64,000 bases of DNA, from contig JAYZAL010000006.1 in NCBI GenBank assembly GCA_036339735.1, positions 33,525 through 97,524 of the forward strand, read 5' to 3'. Of the stretch, positions 1 to 59,793 are shown in pieces. The position numbers and the translations under genes were made by a program. The stretch is from Candidatus Poribacteria bacterium. Lineage in GTDB: Bacteria > Poribacteria > WGA-4E > UBA9662. The notes under the pieces were generated by a model. That model made no database searches. It saw only the letters and a list, made by a program, of their open reading frames with translations, and had not been told where the DNA came from. Numbering within the stretch: position 1 is the stretch's first letter; the number at the start of each line of letters is the position of its first letter.

Positions 1-466
1 AAGTGGAATGGACCTATTATTTCGCGCAAATGGGGACAAAAAATATAAATTCTATCAGCTTATTGTCACCCCCGCAGATGGAGTAGGAAGACCCAACCAT
101 GTTCGTTGGTATGTCCGTGATGGAGAAGACCGTGGAACTTGGAAGGAATATCGCGAATTACGAAAGGAATTCCCGATCGAAGTTATCTCTAAGCAGTGGT
201 ACACGCTATCATTGCAAGGTAAAGGGAATAAATTTACCCTCTATATCAAGAACAAGGAGGATTTACCGTCAACCAAAGTAATGGAATGGACAGATACCAA
301 AAGCCTTCATCCCAAGGGGGTTATTGGCTTTCATACTAACAACTTACATCACTACCAAATTGATAATATGCGTCTGTTCGATTCACCTAATGAAGTTAAT
401 TTGGCTGTATCAGCCAAATCGAAACAGACTACTGCTTGGGCTGAGTTAAAGCAAGCAGATCGATAA
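1..466 (+). CDS. Partial (5'-truncated) ConA-like/DUF1080-like beta-sandwich protein with C-terminal TTW-type tail
   Basis: Frame is open to the window edge. Contains 'WYTLSLQGKGNKFTLY', 'KGVIGF' and 'QIDNMRL', typical of ConA-like sandwiches. Ends AVSAKSKQTTAWAELK. Confidence 0.6.
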   Translation, partial: SGMDLLFRANGDKKYKFYQLIVTPADGVGRPNHVRWYVRDGEDRGTWKEYRELRKEFPIEVISKQWYTLSLQGKGNKFTLYIKNKEDLPSTKVMEWTDTKSLHPKGVIGFHTNNLHHYQIDNMRLFDSPNEVNLAVSAKSKQTTAWAELKQADR

Positions 467-655
467 AATAATTTTCAATAATTGTATAATCTGGATAGAA
501 AGGGAAAGAGCAAAAAATCCTAAAATTTTGTTATTAATAACGGATTTAACTTAACAAAAGTCGAATGTTCAGCTCAGCGTAGTCGGATAATGATATACGT
601 GGAGAATATAGTCGTCAGAAGCAAAAAACAGTGTTAGTTTGTTGCTTCTTGGTTG

Positions 656-684
656 TTGCTAAATTTTATCCGTTGTGATACAAT
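656..684 (+). promoter_or_regulatory. Sigma70-type promoter for the 885 gene
   Basis: TTGCTA, 17 bp spacer, TACAAT with extended -10 TG. Confidence 0.55.
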
Positions 685-711
685 CGGGGGCGCTTGGTAT
701 TGTGATACAAT
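673..711. repeat. 12-bp direct repeat TTGTGATACAAT x2, each near-palindromic
   Basis: Identical copies at 673-684 and 700-711. Confidence 0.8.
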
Positions 712-884
712 ATTCTTCAAGTGCAGTGCAGTTGAGAACTAGAGTTCTAGAATATTCAAGCATAGGTAGCTACTACCTGTTGCGTATTTTAGTTCTTTTC
801 AGAGTCGAATTAAAAAGGCAGCAGATTGTTTGTAAGAGTAGGGTATAAACTCGAGATAGAAAAAGGAGTGTAAAAAAACAAGAT

Positions 885-1754
885 ATGAGAAAATTAGTAT
901 TATTGTCCCTTTTATGTTTGTTAGCACTGCCGGTTTTGTCATTGGCTAATGATCTAGCTCATTATTCGGGGCCTACCAACCCTGGTTGGATTGCTGGTGG
1001 TGCCGTGGCGGCTAATGTGAAAGCAATTGATGGTTTCCAGGGTGTCAAAGCAATGTTTAATAGTATTGAAAACTTTGGTGATGGAGATGAAGAGGGTGAT
1101 GGATCACCGTTGGCTAAGTGGCTTATAGAACACACTAATAATGGTCAACAAGACGTAGTTATCACTGACAGTGGAACTTGTCCCAGTGCTTTTTATCCCT
1201 TTCCAAATAAGAAACCCGATGGTTCAAATATAGAAAACTTCATTGAGGCTGGAAACGTTCACATCAACGTAGCTGACTGGATCTACTATATGAGTTATGA
1301 GGGAGGTGTTCGTAGCCCCAACAATGGACCTAGCGGAGCCGCTAACGTATTTGACATTAAAGGTCTCAGCTTTGGGTCCCGCTCAGGTAATATCAAGCCA
1401 AATGCTAATGGGAAAAAATACATTCCCTCAATGAAGGCGTTTAAGTCAGACCGACCATGGCATACTGAGCAATTCAAAGGTTCAGATTGGGACTTGGTTC
1501 TGTTTGGTGAAGATGGTGATGATGCTGACCCAGCTGTTGCAATTATGAAAAAAGCCGGAAAAGACGGTAATGGAATGATTGCCGCCATGTGGCAAGCCGC
1601 CAAGCCAAAATGGCCCGATAAGCCAGATATTCGTGGTATTGGTGTGGGTGAATTCATGGTTAATTGGTTACAAGAAAATGGTACTTTTAACGTAGATGCC
1701 AAGCATAAAATGACCACGACTTGGGCGAGAGTCAAATCATCTAACGTCAACTAA
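885..1754 (+). CDS. Secreted hypothetical protein with C-terminal TTW-type tail
   Basis: AAGGAG upstream; signal peptide MRKLVLLSLLCLLALPVLSLA; ends VDAKHKMTTTWARVK. Confidence 0.8.
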   Translation: MRKLVLLSLLCLLALPVLSLANDLAHYSGPTNPGWIAGGAVAANVKAIDGFQGVKAMFNSIENFGDGDEEGDGSPLAKWLIEHTNNGQQDVVITDSGTCPSAFYPFPNKKPDGSNIENFIEAGNVHINVADWIYYMSYEGGVRSPNNGPSGAANVFDIKGLSFGSRSGNIKPNANGKKYIPSMKAFKSDRPWHTEQFKGSDWDLVLFGEDGDDADPAVAIMKKAGKDGNGMIAAMWQAAKPKWPDKPDIRGIGVGEFMVNWLQENGTFNVDAKHKMTTTWARVKSSNVN

Positions 1755-11647: not shown

Positions 11648-12814
11648 CTAGTTATCTTTTGTAAAACGATATTCCAGTTCAGTTAACTGGCCGCTATCTA
11701 CGCTTACAATTTGATGTCGAGTACCCATTTTCTCATGCCAAAACTCAAGCTCGAATTGGCCATCAGGCAAGCCTGCAATTTCGAATTGACCATCTTCCTG
11801 AGTTACAGTAAAGAACGGATGATCAATAACATGCACCCAACACTTCATCCAAGGATGAATATCACATTTGACAAAAAATAATTCTTCCGCATCGTAAGTG
11901 CGATCAATGGGGTTTCCCCCAACATTGACTGCTTTGTTGAAGGCCGGATTAGCTTCAGATAACGTATGTACGTTGTGTGGGACAACATCGGAGTTTTTGT
12001 AGCTGATCGTTTGGCCTTTTTGAATAGCCAGAACATGTGGCTTGTAAACACACCCATATTGGTCAACTTCAGCGACGTCCGAGGGCGCAGTATAGCTAGC
12101 TGTCGTTGGTAAACCTCTTCGGATACGCACTAAAATGTTCGCGATAGAATTGTCATTACCCAGAACTAAAGTTTCCGACTTCGGGTTACCACCGTGGATA
12201 TCCAAACAACCGGGAGTAGATCCCATATCTACATCTTTAATCTTTGGTATTGGTCCATCCCACAATACTTTCCCTCGAATAATCCCACTACCATTATTTT
12301 GGGTTGCTGTAACCTGAAATACATCACCGTCATGAGCTTCACCGTCATGAGCTTCACCGTCATGAGCTTCACCGTGATAGCTAGATTCTTTTATTTTGGC
12401 GATAGCTTCCTCATTTGCTGCTTGTACTGCTAGCGACGGTTGGCCAAGTGTATCTGCTTCGCCAGTCAAGGTTAAAAAAATCATAATAGTAAAAAATAGG
12501 ACCGTTAGTCCTAAGAAACCATAGATAACTTTACGCTCATCGTTAAGGTGCATAAAAACCAAAGCCACTAATGATGCCTTGACCGAAGCAATCAGCAAAC
12601 CAAGAAATATAGCCACGGGAAAGGGAACATCCAAGTAGGATGCGGCTACCGTAAAAACGGTCAAGACTCCTAGTGCCAAAAAAACGAGTATATACGATTT
12701 AACATGTACATGGTCATGGACTTTTTCGTCAAGGAAAGCATTAATTGCCTCGTCCGTCATTTCCGGATGTTTCGCTTTCAAATAATCAAACTCTTCATTT
12801 CGGCTAGTGGTCAT
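11648..12814 (-). CDS. Fusion: cytochrome c oxidase subunit IV-like 3-TM domain, His-rich linker, and cupredoxin/carboxypeptidase-regulatory-like domain
   Basis: 'KASLVALVFMHL' Cox subunit IV signature; PHNVH...CDIHPWM type-1 Cu site. Start set at ATG 12814 (GGAGGG RBS; overlaps the nuoH stop). Confidence 0.75.
   Translation of the reverse strand: MTTSRNEEFDYLKAKHPEMTDEAINAFLDEKVHDHVHVKSYILVFLALGVLTVFTVAASYLDVPFPVAIFLGLLIASVKASLVALVFMHLNDERKVIYGFLGLTVLFFTIMIFLTLTGEADTLGQPSLAVQAANEEAIAKIKESSYHGEAHDGEAHDGEAHDGDVFQVTATQNNGSGIIRGKVLWDGPIPKIKDVDMGSTPGCLDIHGGNPKSETLVLGNDNSIANILVRIRRGLPTTASYTAPSDVAEVDQYGCVYKPHVLAIQKGQTISYKNSDVVPHNVHTLSEANPAFNKAVNVGGNPIDRTYDAEELFFVKCDIHPWMKCWVHVIDHPFFTVTQEDGQFEIAGLPDGQFELEFWHEKMGTRHQIVSVDSGQLTELEYRFTKDN
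12324..12375. repeat. 15-bp tandem repeat (about 3.5 copies) encoding (GEAHD)n on the minus strand
   Basis: TCACCGTCATGAGCT x3 plus TCACCGT. Confidence 0.9.
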
Positions 12815-14144
12815 GTTTATCCCTCCAAGAAGCCTCCAATTTCCGCAAATTGGTTGCACCAATGTTACCAGCCAAAACAGTCTGATCATGCGGCTTTAGC
12901 TTCCCAAAGCTGTTAAATACGATCCCGAGTAAGGAAATTACAAAGAGGCTAATAATCAGGAAACTAATTCCGATACTGAGTGTCGAATCGGTTCGGAAAA
13001 ATAGCCCCCAGATTCCAGTCCCTAAAATGTTAAAAAACGAAATCGGAATAAGATACTTCCAGCAAAGATTCATTAACTGATCAACCCGAAGACGTGGCAA
13101 GGTCCATCGAACCCACATCATTACAAAGACTAACAAGAATGTTTTACCTACAATAATGAATAAGCCTGGAACAAACTGATCTTCATCTATTATTCCCTGC
13201 CATCCTCCTAAAAATAAGGTGGCTGCAATAGCACAAACAGCAAACACGTTAGCATATTCAGCGATAAAGAAAACTGCGAAGCGCATACCACTATACTCTG
13301 TATGAAACCCCGCAACTAACTCGGACTCGGCTTCCGGCAAGTCGAAAGGCGTTCGATTGACTTCGGCAATCGCAGATAAAAAATAGACAAAAAATGCCAA
13401 AAAAGTGAAGGGAGACCGAAAAATCATCCAATCGAGAATGGATCCTTTTATCTCGATTCCGAGGAAAGTAGCAATGGCTTCTCCCCCCGAAAACACGCCA
13501 TTTTGAGCTGCAACAATGCCTTCCATACTCATAGTCTGTGTCATCATAATTACAGTCAAAATGGATAAACCAATTGGTATTTCATAACTAACCATCTGCG
13601 CTGCTGAGCGCATGGCGCCGAATAGAGACCACTTGCTGTTCGAAGCCCAACCGGCCATGATTACACCAATTGCAATGACAGAAGAAATAGAAATAACATA
13701 AAAAATGCCAATATTGAGGTCGCTAACGAGGACACTCTGGCTGAATGGGATAGCAGCAAATACAGCAAATGAACAAGCAAAAATCAGATAAGGAGCAAAG
13801 CGGAATAGAAGTTTGTCGGCTTGCGGCGGAATTAGGTCTTCCTTGAAAAGAAGCTTTACCCCATCTGCTAGCGTTTGCAATAATCCCCAAGGCCCTACTC
13901 TCATTGGGCCTGTTCGATCCTGAATCCATGCAGAAACTTTTCTTTCCATTAACACAAGGACTAAAGGTATGAGTGGCACCACGGCCACAAAAATTGCGGC
14001 CACAGCAGACATAACCAAGACAGGACCGAGCCAACTGGGCAAAAAACTGAGGCTATGGCTAGCAAAATCCTCAGCCCAATTACTATTTCCACTCTCAACT
14101 ACAGCTGACTCTATTGATATGAAATTTTTAGCTAATGCTACCAT
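12804..14144 (-). CDS. nuoH: NADH-quinone oxidoreductase subunit H
   Basis: ERKVSAWIQDRTGP, NRTPFDLPEAESELVAGFHTEYSG and RWTLPRLRVDQLM motifs. Confidence 0.96.
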   Translation of the reverse strand: MVALAKNFISIESAVVESGNSNWAEDFASHSLSFLPSWLGPVLVMSAVAAIFVAVVPLIPLVLVLMERKVSAWIQDRTGPMRVGPWGLLQTLADGVKLLFKEDLIPPQADKLLFRFAPYLIFACSFAVFAAIPFSQSVLVSDLNIGIFYVISISSVIAIGVIMAGWASNSKWSLFGAMRSAAQMVSYEIPIGLSILTVIMMTQTMSMEGIVAAQNGVFSGGEAIATFLGIEIKGSILDWMIFRSPFTFLAFFVYFLSAIAEVNRTPFDLPEAESELVAGFHTEYSGMRFAVFFIAEYANVFAVCAIAATLFLGGWQGIIDEDQFVPGLFIIVGKTFLLVFVMMWVRWTLPRLRVDQLMNLCWKYLIPISFFNILGTGIWGLFFRTDSTLSIGISFLIISLFVISLLGIVFNSFGKLKPHDQTVLAGNIGATNLRKLEASWRDKHDH

Positions 14145-18287: not shown

Positions 18288-20327
18288 TTATGACTCTCGA
18301 CGAGTTAGGCTCGACAAATACTCAGAGATTTTATTAGCAATCTTTTCAGCATCTACATCAGCAAAATCGAATAATTCTTTCAGCATCGGTGATATAGCTC
18401 CAGTATCAAGTAGGTTGTTGGCCAACCGACCCATTGTGCTACGATTAACTCCATCCTTCTGCCCTTCACTACCCCCCATATCCAGAATCTTGATCGAGTC
18501 AATTTTTTCCACTGGCCGCATCAATTGTTCAACTATGTCAGCACTTCCATCAATTAATTCCATGATTGCTTCTTGGACTAGAACTCGCTGTTCGGCTACG
18601 TTCCGAGCCTCCATATGAGCCATTTCACCTTGAGCTTTAGCCGTGGCCTCAGCCAAAACCGCATCTGCTAACCGTTCAATAGGTTGCGCTTGAGCTTCTG
18701 CACCAATGACGGCTACTTCTCTTTGCCATTCCGCTTCTTTGGTTTGTTGGACTGCAATGACACCAATTTCGGCTTCGGCCTTACCGGCCTCCGCAACTAA
18801 CTGATTTTTTTGCGCATTGGCAGTATCAACTTGCTTACCTGCAACAGCAATATTTCGATCTTCATCAATTAGCTGAAGCGATAATTCTTGCCCAATTCGG
18901 GATTGCTCTACCTCTAAAACCTTGTCGATTTCAGTTAATTCAACCTGCCGGTTTTGGTTGATCTGAGCAGTTTCGATGACTAGGTTTTTCTCGATCTCAC
19001 GCTCTTGAACTGCTTGCTCTTGAGAGAATTTACTAGTTTCAACAGACAGAGCCTTTTCAATGTCTCTTAAAGCTACACCTTCTTCTTGACCAATTTTGGC
19101 TCGTTCAATCTCCAACAACTTACCTTGTTCTCGAATACCTACTTGCTCTTCCTGATCAAAACGCTGTATTTCAACAGTCAAGTCTTTTTCAATTTCAGCT
19201 ATTTGAACCGCCTTCATTTGTTCAATCTGTTCTGTTTCTACCATCAAGTTCTTTTCAATTTCTCTAATTTGAACAGTTTGCTCTTGTTCGACTTTAGCTA
19301 ATTCGACTTCTTTAATTTTTTCAATTTCGCGTTCTTCGATGGCTTGTTCTTGTGCTACTCGGGCCTTTTCAACCTCTTGCTTCATCAAAAACTCACGTTC
19401 TTGAACCTCCTGCTCCATCTCAAACTGAAATTTCATAGTGTCAGCTTCTCTTTCAGCAGCATATATGGCGATATTTTTCTGCTGATCAGATTCTGCCCAA
19501 GCCTGATCTTGCTCTGCTTCTAATTTTTGAATTCGCGCATCAACTATAATTTTTACGATTGCGACTTCTTTTTCTTGCTCAATTTGTTCTGTTTCTTTAG
19601 CTTGTTCAGCTGTGATTTCGGTAATAGTTCGAATGCCACGTGCATCGAATTGATTTTCTTCTTTATAAGTTTCAAGAGGGGTTTGATCAACCCGAATAAT
19701 CGAAACAGCTTCTAATTTGAGACCATTCTCATTTTTTAGGTTTTCACCAACAGCACGATCAACTTTTTCCGCGAATTCGACTCGTTTCTGTAACAGTTCG
19801 GTTATTTCACTTTCAGCGGCAACACTTCTCAACGCACCTTCCAGTTTCGGCTCAATCAGCTCTCGGATTGTTTCAGGAGTCATTGACTTGTCTCCTAGTG
19901 CTTGAGCTGCTCGAAGAATATCTTCTTCATTAGGTTCGACCTGTAGATAAAAAACTGCTTCTACATTGGCTCGGTTAAAGTCAAGTGTAATAAAAGCATC
20001 TTCACCTTCACGTAAAACCTCCAACACCATTGTGTTTAGAGAGATTTCTTTAACTTCGTGGATTATAGTATTCAGCCAAAGACCTGACGTTATGCTAATC
20101 TTTTCACCACCACCACCAGTTCGGACCAGAGACATGTCAGCTTTTGGCTTTTTGTAGCGAACTACAAAAGCCAAAAAGACACCACTCAGTACAAAAACCA
20201 ACACAAAGGATATTGACACCCAACGGGCAAGTCCCACCAAGTTGTACTGGTCTGTTTGTTGGTAAGCAAGAAAACCGACCAAAACAGCTACAACAAAAAG
20301 AGTTATGACAAGAACTATTAGCCGCAT
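18288..20327 (-). CDS. Flotillin/SPFH (YqiK-like) membrane protein with an extended coiled coil
   Basis: Two N-terminal TM segments; 'LVRTGGGG', 'AAQALG', 'ALRSVAA', 'NGLKLEAVSI' and 'PVEKIDSIKIL' flotillin motifs; AGGAG RBS. Confidence 0.88.
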   Translation of the reverse strand: MRLIVLVITLFVVAVLVGFLAYQQTDQYNLVGLARWVSISFVLVFVLSGVFLAFVVRYKKPKADMSLVRTGGGGEKISITSGLWLNTIIHEVKEISLNTMVLEVLREGEDAFITLDFNRANVEAVFYLQVEPNEEDILRAAQALGDKSMTPETIRELIEPKLEGALRSVAAESEITELLQKRVEFAEKVDRAVGENLKNENGLKLEAVSIIRVDQTPLETYKEENQFDARGIRTITEITAEQAKETEQIEQEKEVAIVKIIVDARIQKLEAEQDQAWAESDQQKNIAIYAAEREADTMKFQFEMEQEVQEREFLMKQEVEKARVAQEQAIEEREIEKIKEVELAKVEQEQTVQIREIEKNLMVETEQIEQMKAVQIAEIEKDLTVEIQRFDQEEQVGIREQGKLLEIERAKIGQEEGVALRDIEKALSVETSKFSQEQAVQEREIEKNLVIETAQINQNRQVELTEIDKVLEVEQSRIGQELSLQLIDEDRNIAVAGKQVDTANAQKNQLVAEAGKAEAEIGVIAVQQTKEAEWQREVAVIGAEAQAQPIERLADAVLAEATAKAQGEMAHMEARNVAEQRVLVQEAIMELIDGSADIVEQLMRPVEKIDSIKILDMGGSEGQKDGVNRSTMGRLANNLLDTGAISPMLKELFDFADVDAEKIANKISEYLSSLTRRES
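18825..19418 (-). repeat. About 9 tandem 22-aa (66-nt) coiled-coil repeats in the flotillin
   Basis: QEQAIEEREIEKIKEVELAKVE, QEQTVQIREIEKNLMVETEQIE, QEQAVQEREIEKNLVIETAQIN and similar units in register. Confidence 0.75.
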
Positions 20328-20358: not shown

Positions 20359-21774
20359 TCAAAAACGCGATTTCCGCCAATCAGCTCCCTTGTTAAGACG
20401 ATATCTACCTTTCAATGGTTGTCGTGGTGAAGACTGCCAAGCCAAGTTGGCCAAATAACAGAGGGCATTCTCAATCAAGGTTTTTGCCAGAGTGGCTTTG
20501 GCTGCATCCCGAGTGTCAATGGCAAAAGCTACATAATGTCCATCACCCCATCCCAACTGGATGCCAACAGCATCTTGATTGTCTCGACGAACAGCTAACT
20601 TAGTGTAAGCGGGGTCATCTGTTACCCAGTGATCATCAGTAATTAGGGCATTCACATCAACTTTATTCGGCCAAGTAAACAAGCCTGTTCTTTTTCCATC
20701 TTCCGTGATATTAACATTGATATCAGAGGAACTGACAACCTTGATTGGATACTGATCGACTGGTAACCAGTTGCCTTTCCACGAGGACTCATGGGTATGA
20801 ACACCATCGGGGGGGACGATATTGTCATCCATCGCTGAAGCCCAAACGACTCCGCCTTTTTGAACGAAATCTTTGATATCTTCTTCTGCATCTTCGACTA
20901 AATACTGGCCATCGTGGGCAGGAGCATTCCAAGTAAACCATACGATATCGTATTCCGAAAGCAAAACACTGGAAAGTTTAACCGCATTATCAGGGTTGCC
21001 ATAGTTGTCTGGGTTTGAGTTAATATGTACGGTTTGGTAATCGAATTTGTGCCCTTCAATATCAGTTAACGCCTCTAAAATTGCAGGTTCATTTGTTCGA
21101 CTATCACCAACGACAACTAGTACTTGAAAAGCCCCTACTGGTACAATTTTCATAGATGAAATGGAGTTAGAAAAGGATTGGGGTGCCATGTTCAAGTTTC
21201 TTAGCTCTAGTTTATATTCGCGACTGTTAAGGGGCAGAACCATACGTCTACCTTCAAAATTCGGATGCTCATAGCAAACGGCACGACAACCACTGAAGGG
21301 AAAGTTAGGGCCCCTTTGAATTCGAATCGAGGAAATAGAATTGTTGATCCCAATATCCTTTAGGTCGCTCACATCTCGTAAAATAACAGCTTTCTGACCT
21401 CGGTAATCAGCCTCGCCGTACACTTCGATAATCATAGGGATAGCCCCGTATTCGGGCGGCGTGGGGTGTGCTGCTGGGCTGAAACTGACCGAAGAAATTA
21501 CATCTCCAAAATTATACGGGATTTGATGGATATTGGGGTAGTACCCAGGCGCTAAAACTAATCTTCGGCCGACATAATTGATATGTTCGTGAAATATAGC
21601 TTTATAGTTGGGAGCAGCCGAAAAGGCTGGTCCTTTATAGATCTTAATTGACGAAATTAAGTCTTGTGCACCGATGTCTTCTGTATTCGGAACTGAGTCA
21701 AGAATGGTGACTTTACGGCCATTGTAGTTAACATGTTGAAACACCTCAATGACTAGTCGTGGAGAAAGAGCCAT
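20359..21774 (-). CDS. Beta/gamma-crystallin domain protein with a C-terminal alpha/beta (GATase/ThuA-like) domain
   Basis: Four (F/Y/H)-x-H/A-x-N/D-Y/F-x-G Greek-key motifs, each followed by D/N-x-ISS; 'LSEYDIVWF...IKDFVQKGG' GATase-like signature; no signal peptide. Confidence 0.75.
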   Translation of the reverse strand: MALSPRLVIEVFQHVNYNGRKVTILDSVPNTEDIGAQDLISSIKIYKGPAFSAAPNYKAIFHEHINYVGRRLVLAPGYYPNIHQIPYNFGDVISSVSFSPAAHPTPPEYGAIPMIIEVYGEADYRGQKAVILRDVSDLKDIGINNSISSIRIQRGPNFPFSGCRAVCYEHPNFEGRRMVLPLNSREYKLELRNLNMAPQSFSNSISSMKIVPVGAFQVLVVVGDSRTNEPAILEALTDIEGHKFDYQTVHINSNPDNYGNPDNAVKLSSVLLSEYDIVWFTWNAPAHDGQYLVEDAEEDIKDFVQKGGVVWASAMDDNIVPPDGVHTHESSWKGNWLPVDQYPIKVVSSSDINVNITEDGKRTGLFTWPNKVDVNALITDDHWVTDDPAYTKLAVRRDNQDAVGIQLGWGDGHYVAFAIDTRDAAKATLAKTLIENALCYLANLAWQSSPRQPLKGRYRLNKGADWRKSRF

Positions 21775-21778
21775 AAGG

Positions 21779-23170
21779 TCAGTTGATATCTCTTAGGGCT
21801 CGGGTAGCCAAATCAGCGCGCCGGGACTGAAATTCTCTATCCGAGACTCGCCCTCCTCGCATCACATTTGTTTGGTGGTACATGAATTCCGTTGCATCCA
21901 TTTTTCTCTTAAAAAGACGAAAATACTCAAACCGTGTCAGGGTAGGAGGTATGTTACCCGGGCATAATGTGTGCATTCCAATCTGAACAGGATTTCCCAT
22001 TCCAACGTTGGTTTGACCGCAACTGACCCATTTAGTACCATCTGAGCTTGCATAACCCAAGAATTGATTGCCGCGCCTCTCGAGCCTAAGATAGAGCTCA
22101 CGTACATTACGTAAGCCAGGGCCACGGCCTACTAATGAGTATTGCCGATTAACATGTCTTTCAAACCGAACATCTCCCCTAAAACCATGCGGTCCTGATG
22201 TTTTTTCTAACCGAACAAAAGCGTTAGGGCTTTTCCATACTACAAGTCCACCATGCTCACGCAAATCTGGAGAGACTCGAAGACGGCACTCGATAGCAAA
22301 ATCGCCCTCCACCTCCATCAACAAACGAGGTGCATCCATGTCGCCACCCTGACCAGGTGGTGAACCATGCCATAAATCTTGGCCTGGTTCTGCACGCATT
22401 TCTAGGTAGCCTTGCCTCTCAGACCAGGATCCACCACCACCGGGATCTACCCATTTCCATTCAGGCCGCATGTCATTACCGATGAACTCATCATCGAATA
22501 CCAGTTCGGTAAATTCAGAAGAAGATGACCACCCCTCAATCTTAACCGAAGATATCATATCAGCAAAATTTTGGGGTAAAACATGAAGGTTTGGAATTTC
22601 TTTTTTATACTCAGAAGGTTCCATTCTTATGCTAAGCTTGGCTCCTTCAAAGTCAATATGTTCAAAGAAGTGGATATCGGTTCCATAAGAAGGGAAGTCA
22701 GGACCTTTAAAGATTTTGATCGAAGAAATGCTATCATGGATTCCAAGATCTCCAGTATGGGCAATATCTCGCAGGATTGTTATCTTACGCCCCCCGTAAT
22801 CAACATGTTCATAACACTCGACAACAACAGGAACAGTTCCCCATTCTGGGCCAGTTGTTTCTAGCATTGAACCAAAACTAATTGAGGAAATACTGTCTGG
22901 GAAATTGTAAATAACATCATGTAAATTAGGATAGAAACCTGGGCCTAAAGCCAACTTCTTACCTTGAAAACCACGATGTTGATGAAAAATAGCTTTATAG
23001 TTAGGGCTGGACCGAAACCCAGGCCCTTTATAAACTTTGACAGAAGAGATATTGTCTTGAAACCCAATTAGCGTTGTAAATTCCACGGGCTCAAAAACAC
23101 AAGCGCGTCGGCCACCGAAATTAACATGTTCAAAAACTTCAGCAATGAGTCGAGGAATTACGGCCGGCAT
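21779..23170 (-). CDS. Beta/gamma-crystallin domain protein with a C-terminal ConA-like (DUF1349/beta-xylosidase C-terminal-like) domain
   Basis: FEHVNFGG, HQHRGFQG, YEHVDYGG and FEHIDFEG with DNISS/DSISS/DMISS; 'APRLL..VEGDF' and 'LRLERRGNQFLGYASSDGTKW'. Confidence 0.8.
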   Translation of the reverse strand: MPAVIPRLIAEVFEHVNFGGRRACVFEPVEFTTLIGFQDNISSVKVYKGPGFRSSPNYKAIFHQHRGFQGKKLALGPGFYPNLHDVIYNFPDSISSISFGSMLETTGPEWGTVPVVVECYEHVDYGGRKITILRDIAHTGDLGIHDSISSIKIFKGPDFPSYGTDIHFFEHIDFEGAKLSIRMEPSEYKKEIPNLHVLPQNFADMISSVKIEGWSSSSEFTELVFDDEFIGNDMRPEWKWVDPGGGGSWSERQGYLEMRAEPGQDLWHGSPPGQGGDMDAPRLLMEVEGDFAIECRLRVSPDLREHGGLVVWKSPNAFVRLEKTSGPHGFRGDVRFERHVNRQYSLVGRGPGLRNVRELYLRLERRGNQFLGYASSDGTKWVSCGQTNVGMGNPVQIGMHTLCPGNIPPTLTRFEYFRLFKRKMDATEFMYHQTNVMRGGRVSDREFQSRRADLATRALRDIN

Positions 23171-40023: not shown

Positions 40024-40635
40024 TTAGTTAGATTTTATATTAGCCCAAGTCGTACTTAATTTGGATTTGGCATCAACAGAAGCACCAGCGGATTGACCTG
40101 TCAAAATAACAAAGTAGTTACTCCCAGCACCAGCAGACCCTTCACCATTACCACCAAGGGTGATAGCACCGGCTTTGAATGAGCTTTTCCAGAGGTTAAC
40201 AGTAACCATTCCGCCATCAGTTGTCTCAACAGCTACAGGTTCCCCATCTTTTACTTGTTTTTCAAAACCTTCGACCAGCCATGTTGGAGGTGTACCACCT
40301 TTTTCTTCATCAGCTCTACTATCCAAAGCGACATAGACATCAACGTCTTTATCAACAGTAAAGCTTAGAAAATCTGTACCTTTTTGCTTTTTGTCATCAT
40401 TGGCAGACATGATCGTTTGCATGCCCTCAAACCCCTCAGGAATAGCAACGATTAGGTAGTCACGATCTATAAAGAATTTACTATCTTTTTTGAGTTCTCC
40501 CTCAATGTATTGGTCTGCAGGATCTTTACTTTTAGATTTAATGTCCGTAATCTTAACCTTAACCGGTGAAGCTATAGCTGCCAAGAAAGTTGTTAGGGTT
40601 AGAATAATAATGGAATTTAGTGTTAGTTTTCTCAT
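40024..40635 (-). CDS. Secreted beta-rich protein with C-terminal TTW-type tail (paralog of the next gene)
   Basis: Signal peptide; 'IDRDY..ANDDKK..PP.WL'; ends VDAKSKLSTTWANIK. Confidence 0.8.
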   Translation of the reverse strand: MRKLTLNSIIILTLTTFLAAIASPVKVKITDIKSKSKDPADQYIEGELKKDSKFFIDRDYLIVAIPEGFEGMQTIMSANDDKKQKGTDFLSFTVDKDVDVYVALDSRADEEKGGTPPTWLVEGFEKQVKDGEPVAVETTDGGMVTVNLWKSSFKAGAITLGGNGEGSAGAGSNYFVILTGQSAGASVDAKSKLSTTWANIKSN

Positions 40636-40672: not shown

Positions 40673-41287
40673 TTATTGTGACTTAATAGTGGACCAGGTC
40701 GTGGTTAATTTAGCGGCCGGATCAACACTTGCAGATTGATCTTCTTCCACTAGTATCAGATAATTACTACTTTGGCCTGTGGCCGGCTTGTCGGCATTTC
40801 CACCTATGGCTACTTTTCCAGCCTTGACTTCTGCTTTCCAAAGATTAAAAGTGCCCATACCACCGTCAGTAACCTCAATGGCTAGTGGATCTTTTCCATC
40901 AAGTTGTTTTTCATAGCCTTTTTCCAGCCACTCTGGAGGTTTACCACCTTTTTCCTCATCTCCTCGGCTATCCCGACAGATCCAAATAATAGATGGCTTA
41001 TTGACTTTGAAAGTTACAAAACCGTCGCCCGTTGACTTTTTGTCATTATTGGCGGTCATGATAAACTGGATCCCCACCAGTTCTTTGGGCATTTCTACCA
41101 CAGTATAGTCTCGGTCAATGTAGTATTTAGTTCCTTTTTCTAATGAAGGGCCAACTTCATAAGGTAATTTACTTCCAACCTTAAGGTCTGTAATTTTTAC
41201 TGGTTTTGGTTTAGCCTCCGCAACAATGACAATGGCAAAGACAGCCAAAAAAGACAAACCTAAATAGATAGCTCTTTTTACAAACAA
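40673..41287 (-). CDS. Secreted beta-rich protein with C-terminal TTW-type tail
   Basis: TTG start with GGAG RBS; signal peptide ending AEA; ends VDPAAKLTTTWSTIK. Confidence 0.8.
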   Translation of the reverse strand: MFVKRAIYLGLSFLAVFAIVIVAEAKPKPVKITDLKVGSKLPYEVGPSLEKGTKYYIDRDYTVVEMPKELVGIQFIMTANNDKKSTGDGFVTFKVNKPSIIWICRDSRGDEEKGGKPPEWLEKGYEKQLDGKDPLAIEVTDGGMGTFNLWKAEVKAGKVAIGGNADKPATGQSSNYLILVEEDQSASVDPAAKLTTTWSTIKSQ

Positions 41288-59112: not shown

Positions 59113-59793
59113 TTATATTTTGCTTTTTACAACAGCCCAAGTGGTTGTAATACAATCTTGGGGTGAAACGGACAAACTTTTAACTCCCTTACCACCAACA
59201 ATAAAGTCTTTATACTTTACAATGCTTTTTGAGGCACCTAAACCAATTCGGCCGCCTTGGATTTTACCAAATTTATTACGAACCCGCTCCTTGATTTTAC
59301 CACCTTCTTCTCCACCACTGAGAATAGCTTCGCCATTTTCGAAATCCAAACGAATATCAAACCATTTCTTGGGCGGGCAATTTGGTACACAATCAGCTTC
59401 GGCAACCGCACCATCTCTTTTGTGATTCTTCATACCAATCTTATCAAAAGCCCACTTTTGGCGACCACCAACAAAGACACCACCCAAATGATAATGTGCT
59501 GACTTGCCGTCATAACCAAAAACGATGAAAATATTCTGCCATTCCCCGTCCCCTAGGTCATTAGCTTTGACTGAGATGTATTCGATGCCATCCATCTCGG
59601 TTTCTTCATCCTTTTTTAATAGAACAATGGCTTCTTCCGCTACCTTGGTATTGTGGTATTCCCCTTTTTTGATTTTCCAGTCCCCACTGATAACTTCCCA
59701 CGATCTATCATCCTCAAAAGTATAATGGCGTTCCCCAGCCCAAGTGGAGTCGAGGAACAAAAAAAAGGAAATCACTAAAATCAATGCTCGCAT
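59113..59793 (-). CDS. Secreted ConA-like/DUF1080-like protein with C-terminal TTW-type tail
   Basis: AGGAG RBS; signal peptide; 'GDWKIKKG', 'WFDIRL' and 'GGRIGLG'; ends VSPQDCITTTWAVVK. Confidence 0.75.
   Translation of the reverse strand: MRALILVISFFLFLDSTWAGERHYTFEDDRSWEVISGDWKIKKGEYHNTKVAEEAIVLLKKDEETEMDGIEYISVKANDLGDGEWQNIFIVFGYDGKSAHYHLGGVFVGGRQKWAFDKIGMKNHKRDGAVAEADCVPNCPPKKWFDIRLDFENGEAILSGGEEGGKIKERVRNKFGKIQGGRIGLGASKSIVKYKDFIVGGKGVKSLSVSPQDCITTTWAVVKSKI

Follow-up and report, generated by a model that had tools for sequence, protein, structure and literature searches.

A Trp-centred C-terminal tail on small exported proteins of Poribacteria resembles the leader of type A T9SS C-terminal domains and may act as a sorting signal

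In secretion by the type IX system (T9SS), exported proteins combine a Sec signal, a variable passenger and a C-terminal domain (CTD), the type A form of which (TIGR04183, PF18962; FlgD_ig-like PF13860) is a seven-stranded sandwich with motifs B, D and E. Type A CTDs are described as binding the loops of PorV inside the SprA pore (PMC10994853), and cleavage by PorU is reported to occur at X/(GSA)(VLI) (PMC4560394). The account given of Prevotella intermedia indicates that a T9SS signal may be much reduced in length without losing its cleavage and modification; the minimal CTDs, of 50 to 60 residues, retain a folded sheet with motifs B, D and E (PMC11969387). Another class of signals comprises the short portable tags PEP-CTERM (with its exosortase), GlyGly-CTERM, MYXO-CTERM, IPTL-CTERM and LPXTG, which occur in many copies per genome. 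Finally, dockerins, small C-terminal modules with a calcium loop, a duplicated segment and a helix, display many passengers on a cohesin-bearing scaffold.

Judged by its sequence, the tail described here, 16 residues long and found in Candidatus Poribacteria, appears to act as C-terminal sorting signals do, and its closest counterpart is the leader segment of type A CTDs. As with type A CTD proteins, it stands behind a Sec signal and a variable passenger, in 62 of 96 Poribacteria copies it opens with a [GSA][VLI]-type motif resembling the PorU site, it shares genomes and passenger domains with CTDs, and on large proteins it is fused to the CTD front. In contrast to type A CTDs, it has a short helix only, without the seven-stranded sandwich and motifs B, D and E, it has an invariant Trp, it is found alone on small passengers only and it is missing from the 80 genomes sampled of a T9SS-positive phylum. 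Lacking both the fold and a model match (neither TIGR04183 nor PF18962 matched the five proteins described below), the tail is not a member of the CTD family. Compared with the short Prevotella CTDs as described (PMC11969387), it has a quarter of the length and corresponds to the leader only. With the CTERM-type tags it shares shortness, portability and high copy number, and with PEP-CTERM in particular a V-x-P beginning, a basic end and a junction at which the two have been swapped. It is nevertheless not of the tripartite CTERM class, since it has no hydrophobic or transmembrane segment and no TIGR02595 match and an exosortase was absent from 13 of 13 Poribacteria genomes. It shares with dockerins its small size, its C-terminal position and the putative ability to present numerous passengers on one scaffold, and cohesins are present in the genome, but it has neither calcium loop nor duplicated segment. 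No description of the tail was found in print, in a search that covered mainly open-access papers.

The stretch of DNA analysed (64,000 nucleotides, hereafter the window) contains five ORFs ending in this motif, as the initial annotation had recognized. ORF1 (2..466, + strand) is the 3' part of an exported 248-aa protein and carries the tail AVSAKSKQTTAWAELK (404..451, +). The ATG at position 8 had wrongly been taken as its start; the gene begins upstream of the window, and its true N-terminus is signal-peptide-like. ORF2 (885..1754, +) encodes an exported protein of 289 aa with the tail NVDAKHKMTTTWARVK (1689..1736, +), belongs to a cluster of 6 and has no Pfam or NCBIfam match. ORF3 (40024..40635, − strand; tail SVDAKSKLSTTWANIK at 40033..40080, −) encodes an exported 203-aa beta-sandwich like the accessory domain of GH2/GH138 glycosidases, and ORF4 (40673..41287, −; tail SVDPAAKLTTTWSTIK at 40682..40729, −) its 204-aa paralogue, 47% identical. 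ORF5 (59113..59793, −), exported and 226 aa long, ends in SVSPQDCITTTWAVVK (59125..59172, −). Behind the Lys of the tail, 4, 5, 2, 2 and 3 residues follow in ORF1 to ORF5, respectively. Signal peptides had been proposed for the four complete ORFs; by a hydropathy heuristic these are present, and ORF1 has one too once its upstream start is included. The five proteins had also been called unrelated, which did not hold, as they form three families: ORF1 and ORF5 share a blastp cluster of 10, two other members of which match PF06439, ORF3 and ORF4 form a second cluster and ORF2 falls in a third. The accompanying statement that the bodies belong to at least three unrelated families stands, with these three clusters in the window and 25 among 88 passengers genome-wide. 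Close homologues of ORF3 bear the name Candidatus Poribacteria. ORF3 and ORF4 are covered by contigs of 20 sequencing runs from 13 studies, 19 of which are recorded as RNA; the RNA runs are marine, and four runs were examined. Such contigs can neither rank expression nor exclude a DNA origin.

Other features of the window were noted in passing. Two adjoining proteins of about 465 aa (20359-23170) contain repeats that by eye resemble beta/gamma-crystallin, and a flotillin-like gene (18288-20327) adjoins the pair. A 413-aa membrane protein, part of which resembles cytochrome oxidase subunit IV by eye, is encoded at 11648-12889 inside a run of NADH dehydrogenase genes.

When the 13,360 stop-to-stop ORFs of the genome were searched with a profile built from the five tails, 48 matched at i-E < 0.1, and every match lay at most 7 residues from the stop. 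The iterated profile yielded 88 matches at i-E < 1, with the Trp 5 to 17 residues from the stop in 88 of 88, and none in reversed ORFs. The tail is far beyond chance. Because the script for the iterated profile dropped matches without Trp, the invariance of this residue was tested by separate scans; a position-first scan of the 3,246 called genes found 88 Trp-centred ends and no credible Leu or Phe tail. With 8 further proteins recognized by passenger homology or pattern, the genome has 96 tail proteins, and 93 of the 3,246 called genes (about 3%) carry the tail. V, K-L, W and K are near-invariant, and the consensus drawn up from the window could be refined to [AS]-V-[DE]-P-x-x-K-L-[ATS]-T-x-W-[GAS]-x-[IL]-[KR]-x(1-7)-stop. 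Trp-bearing matches to the iterated profile were strictly C-terminal and co-occurred with signal-peptide-like starts, as anticipated: a hydrophobic N-terminus of this kind, judged by hydropathy heuristic and not by a signal-peptide predictor, was seen in 80 of 83 complete tail ORFs versus 40% of 2,666 background ORFs.

Among the 25 blastp clusters of the 88 passengers, one LamG-like cluster accounts for 37. Family scans of 33 passengers returned LamG (8), F5/8 (2), PF06439 (2), cohesin (2), HmuY (1), CBM9-like (1) and DUF3108-like (1) domains and no family for 16, so that at least seven Pfam families are represented. Cohesin and LamG domains are shared between tail proteins and CTD proteins, and 11 cohesin domains in the genome exceed the cut-off. 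On the evidence of these domains and of the HmuY context, the passengers look extracellular. At that HmuY locus (L013, genome G000, contig C80:14267-18068), a TonB-receptor-like gene is accompanied by one HmuY with signal peptide and tail and by another that is tail-less and of lipoprotein type, a pair that, from its sequences, is best described as a putative anchor swap between paralogues. Neighbours of tail genes were mostly catabolic paralogues (Gfo/Idh/MocA-like, sulfatase-like and PhyH-like, named by eye), and other tail genes filled 42 of 172 neighbour slots. In the same genome, G000, a LamG tail gene is apparently split into two frames (C13:5381-6114), and a LamG fragment lies between two tail genes (C72:17235-17525).

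The tail lies outside the fold of its passenger, as the initial annotation had supposed, and this is borne out by the homologues and by the structure model of ORF3. The body of ORF3 has the fold of an accessory domain known from GH2/GH138 glycosidases. In its model (7-row alignment) most of the body shows block values of pLDDT of 66-94, compared with 48-60 for the tail, where a short helix is predicted at residues 197-202, over T-W-A-N-I-K. The domain also occurs in 120 longer proteins, none of which has the tail; their ends comprise T9SS CTDs, transmembrane CTERM-like tails, a dockerin, the bare domain and a third Trp tail. In P0006, an ORF3 homologue with 38% identity, a PEP-CTERM that matches TIGR02595 stands at the junction of the tail. 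The tail thus seems interchangeable with known sorting signals on the ORF3-type passenger. It is a portable C-terminal module, unfolded save for a short helix, on Sec-type exported binding domains. That no existing family model explains it was likewise confirmed, as Pfam and NCBIfam hold no model covering the tail in the five window proteins or in four short-variant proteins (see below). An atlas search with the tail alone as query gave one match at 0.79, which was uninformative. The third Trp-centred end, approximately x-V-x-x-W-x-L-Y, follows ORF3-type domains in the metagenome proteins P0069, P0082, P0007, P0110 and P0081 and has no NCBIfam tail model in the three proteins scanned; ends of this kind occur in Sumerlaeota-type genomes.

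Matches to the tail profile were found in all 21 relatives searched and in 121 of 121 genomes across the phylum Poribacteria, each with at least 16 matches, related genomes not being independent counts. The tail had been thought lineage-specific, and this did not survive, as a shorter variant exists in Eisenbacteria, Krumholzibacteria and Latescibacteria. It was found with the pattern T-[TS]-W-G-x-[IV]-K-A-L-Y-R, run on a species collection, which gave 115 matching stretches with the Trp at most 14 residues from the stop in 111. The records were Eisenbacteria, Krumholzibacteriia or Latescibacter- in 59 of the 115 cases and had unrelated names in 7. Twenty short-variant genomes contained 16-74 copies (14 genomes) or 1-6 copies (6 genomes). 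The short variant has [PA]-V-E five residues before the Trp versus ten in the Poribacteria tail. Alignment of the two profiles does not extend beyond the T-T-W-x-x-I-K core (94%), so that the variants may be convergent. One record was labelled Gemmatimonadota; none of 80 sampled genomes of that phylum matched the short-variant profile, the only one applied there. A universal profile search gave 419 matches, the best 150 of which consisted of 140 terminal tails with Trp, 6 chance repeats and 4 near-terminal or doubled motifs. One protein (L134:1-507) ends in four tandem short-variant tails. On a contig from a viral collection (L238:314-1438), a signal-peptide protein with the Poribacteria tail is encoded beside a long coiled-coil gene; the other match from that collection, L237, lies within a tail-sheath-like gene and is due to chance.

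An internal form of the motif exists as well, and the expectation of a strictly C-terminal position therefore holds for the Trp form (88 of 88) and fails directly before T9SS CTDs. In register and immediately preceding a type A CTD, the motif matched 64 times in one set of 21 genomes, 14 of which had matches, and 15 times in another set of 13, of which 8 had matches. As G008 belongs to both sets, this amounts to 79 matches in 22 of 33 distinct genomes. Both classes are represented, and controls, including the reversed pattern, gave none. The example in the present genome is an S8 protease with the tail in exact register, Phe in place of Trp, right before the CTD. The fused motif stands 3-4 residues before the first CTD strand. 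Positions not constrained by the pattern agree with the register of the tail: V/I occupies −10 in 20 of 24 and 13 of 15 fusions, P is found at −8 (17 of 24 and 9 of 15), and T at −2 (22 of 24); G-x-[IV]-K and T-T are kept despite the CTD. Fused passengers are mostly longer than 500 aa and comprise FG-GAP, ASPIC and S8 proteins (five proteins scanned) and, by eye, WD40 propellers. An AlphaFold model (26-row alignment) left the fused tail unpacked at a pLDDT of 44-57 and did not support packing of the tail on its own CTD. No fusion was seen in 14 short-variant genomes, where one pattern match crosses a stop. Many Poribacteria CTDs (in G000) have a second type of leader, [AST]-A-P and a helical-looking segment, before the first strand.

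Two further regularities distinguish the terminal from the fused form. Among the fused matches, 12 of 79 have Trp (in the wider set, 7 of 15), the remainder having mostly Leu or Phe, with Leu under-counted because the fusion pattern missed CTN leucines. When 21 genomes were scanned irrespective of position with two matched patterns, the Leu/Phe-centred one gave 3 matches, all followed by a CTD (one with an in-frame stop), and the Trp-centred one gave 268, with 31 of 31 terminal among the motifs in the 30 loci listed. Tails that end a protein are thus Trp-centred, and in front of a CTD the position is mostly Leu or Phe. Secondly, 90 of 91 complete tail proteins of this genome do not exceed 350 aa, and 42 of 43 CTD proteins have 466 aa or more; the tail without a CTD belongs to small passengers and the CTD to large ones. 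Proteins with the short variant have 119-574 aa.

The machinery had been called unknown. With the motif fused to CTD fronts and a T9SS-like kit in the genome it is not wholly so, although export or anchoring itself is our interpretation. The genome has 42 matches to TIGR04183, an SprA-like protein of 2,172 aa (score 133 versus a cut-off of 200), 20 PorV-family matches, 8 of them over the cut-off, and two PorU-like proteins scoring 419.9 and 358.4 against a cut-off of 420. These two PorU-like sortases (L231 on C38 and L232 on C16 of G000) have about 2,060 aa, compared with 1,095 positions in the model. Short-variant genomes had SprA matches in 5 of 5 tested and PorU over the cut-off. In the tail-negative phylum SprA exceeded the cut-off in 5 of 5 genomes tested; since the tail was found in 0 of 80 genomes there, T9SS does not imply the tail. 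The motor component GldM was silent in 5 of 5 genomes and likewise in control genomes.

The start of the tail was compared with the PorU cleavage motif. [GSA][VLI] occurs at −11/−10 in 62 of 96 Poribacteria tails versus 0-15 at other offsets; V at −10 belongs to the profile by which tails were selected, and the independent preference is that at −11 alone. Among short-variant tails the motif is present in 24 of 143, and Pro precedes the V in 71 of 143, compared with 12 of 96 in Poribacteria. Such a Pro would fit PorU cleavage poorly.

Candidate readers of the tail were sought by gene context and phylogeny. Tail genes do not cluster with T9SS genes (4 CTD and 2 PorV-like genes among 130 neighbours), and the neighbour counts revealed neither a reader candidate nor an enriched scaffold candidate. 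In a PorV tree of 38 rows, drawn from this genome (11 of its 20 matches) and from five other genomes (27 of 30 loci), no clade was clearly specific to the tail; one group with support, which joins three Poribacteria barrels and one of a short-variant genome, is a lead only. Two candidates were rejected: for Poribacteria, exosortase, found in none of 13 genomes there and present in 10 of 13 short-variant genomes, and, as a tail-specific protein, a half-size SprA-like barrel, which is also present in 3 of 5 tail-negative genomes. SprA-related barrels of 1,130-1,200 aa without a Pfam match (L185:8671-12096 on C26 of G000, L180, L181, L182 and L183) are conserved in Poribacteria, short-variant genomes and the tail-negative phylum, and in short-variant genomes such a gene often lies beside PorU, PorV and a POTRA-Omp85 gene. 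DUF5683-like genes follow canonical PorV in Poribacteria and in short-variant genomes (L187:9446-10213; L183:12205-13831), and in G025 a tail gene lies directly behind a 1,449-aa SprA-related gene (L184:11740-12459).

We tentatively prefer to read the tail as a sorting signal of the T9SS-like system in these lineages, a type A CTD leader that is also able to stand alone; we hold this with somewhat less than even confidence. The passenger would be exported by Sec and then fold. T-T-W-G-x-[IL]-K would form a short helix recognized by some T9SS component, the most plausible one being a shuttle of the PorV family within the SprA pore, and the tail would serve small single domains as the folded CTD serves large proteins. 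On this proposal a following CTD makes loss of the Trp tolerable. The beginning of the tail, [AS]-V-[DE], would be a PorU-type site at which the protein is cut, to be either attached to a surface glycolipid or released, and the cell would thereby be coated with some 100 small modules of lectin-like or ligand-binding character.

Possible, though doubtful, is a different role in which the tail is not cut off but retained as a docking peptide, bound non-covalently to a shared envelope receptor or scaffold. On large proteins exported by a CTD, removal of the CTD would leave the tail as the new C-terminus, and small proteins would arrive by a route independent of the tail. Retention would agree with the Pro at the would-be cleavage position in half of the short-variant tails and a minority of the long ones, with the four tandem tails on one protein, as for avidity, and with lipoprotein-like starts alongside the tail, of which one was found by regex, a second by eye and several among the short-variant pattern matches. 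The conservation of G-x-[IV]-K and T-T in CTD fusions and the unpacked state of the fused tail in the model point the same way. Docking nevertheless leaves unexplained both the size split and the loss of Trp only where a CTD follows, and no scaffold candidate is enriched beside tail genes.

We regard it as unlikely that the tail is an export or retention signal of a machine other than T9SS, such as a secretin system, an extra Omp85 protein or a lineage-specific protein, with the CTD fusions as secondary captures spread as a cassette. A secretin was found in 5 of 5 tail-bearing genomes tested, but of 14 control genomes 6 had secretin matches as well. This genome and the short-variant genomes have an additional POTRA-Omp85 protein in common, and both the absence of the tail from 80 of 80 genomes of a T9SS-bearing phylum and the lack of fusions in the 14 short-variant genomes would suit such a machine. 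Against it, the fusions hold their register across both classes and on unrelated passengers, and exosortase is excluded for Poribacteria.

Quite unlikely, too, is a purely physical device, either a short basic amphipathic helix sticking to the membrane or to some anionic polymer, or a motif that joins lectin domains into oligomers by binding to itself. The last 20 residues carry a net positive charge in 85 of 96 tail proteins, and the predicted helix over T-W-A-N-I-K and the tandem copies would be in keeping with this, but the helix has only about two turns, the 10-residue core has a helical moment (at 100 degrees) of 0.29, which does not exceed that of shuffled sequences (0.31), and the fixed spacing and near-invariant V, K-L, W and K look like specific recognition. 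That the tail is part of the passenger fold, or an artefact of chance or paralogy as the large LamG-like cluster might suggest, is very improbable in view of the spread over 25 clusters and at least seven Pfam families, the tail-less longer proteins with the ORF3 domain, the drop in model confidence from body to tail and the empty reversed control.

Returning to the tail as a CTD leader that can stand alone, the combination of CTD fusion, Trp switch and size split makes the reader of the tail a question that can be put to SprA, PorV and PorU specifically. Should a peptide of 16 residues be able to replace a folded CTD, this would revise what T9SS recognizes, T9SS would extend beyond the groups in which papers place it, and a very short display tag would be on offer. 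A bolder version, which we consider speculative and rather doubtful, is that Poribacteria, Eisenbacteria, Krumholzibacteria and Latescibacteria possess a second, peptide-only entry into T9SS, in which a 16-residue linear signal, composed of a cleavage motif and the Trp helix, directs folded domains of a size fitting the SprA pore to the surface with no folded CTD, and a CTD is added behind it only for large cargo. If true, no linear T9SS signal would precede it, and it would belong to a family of tails centred on Trp. The tail itself singles out a large group of exported binding proteins that lack annotation, both in abundant bacteria of marine and sponge-associated habitats and in three other uncultured groups.
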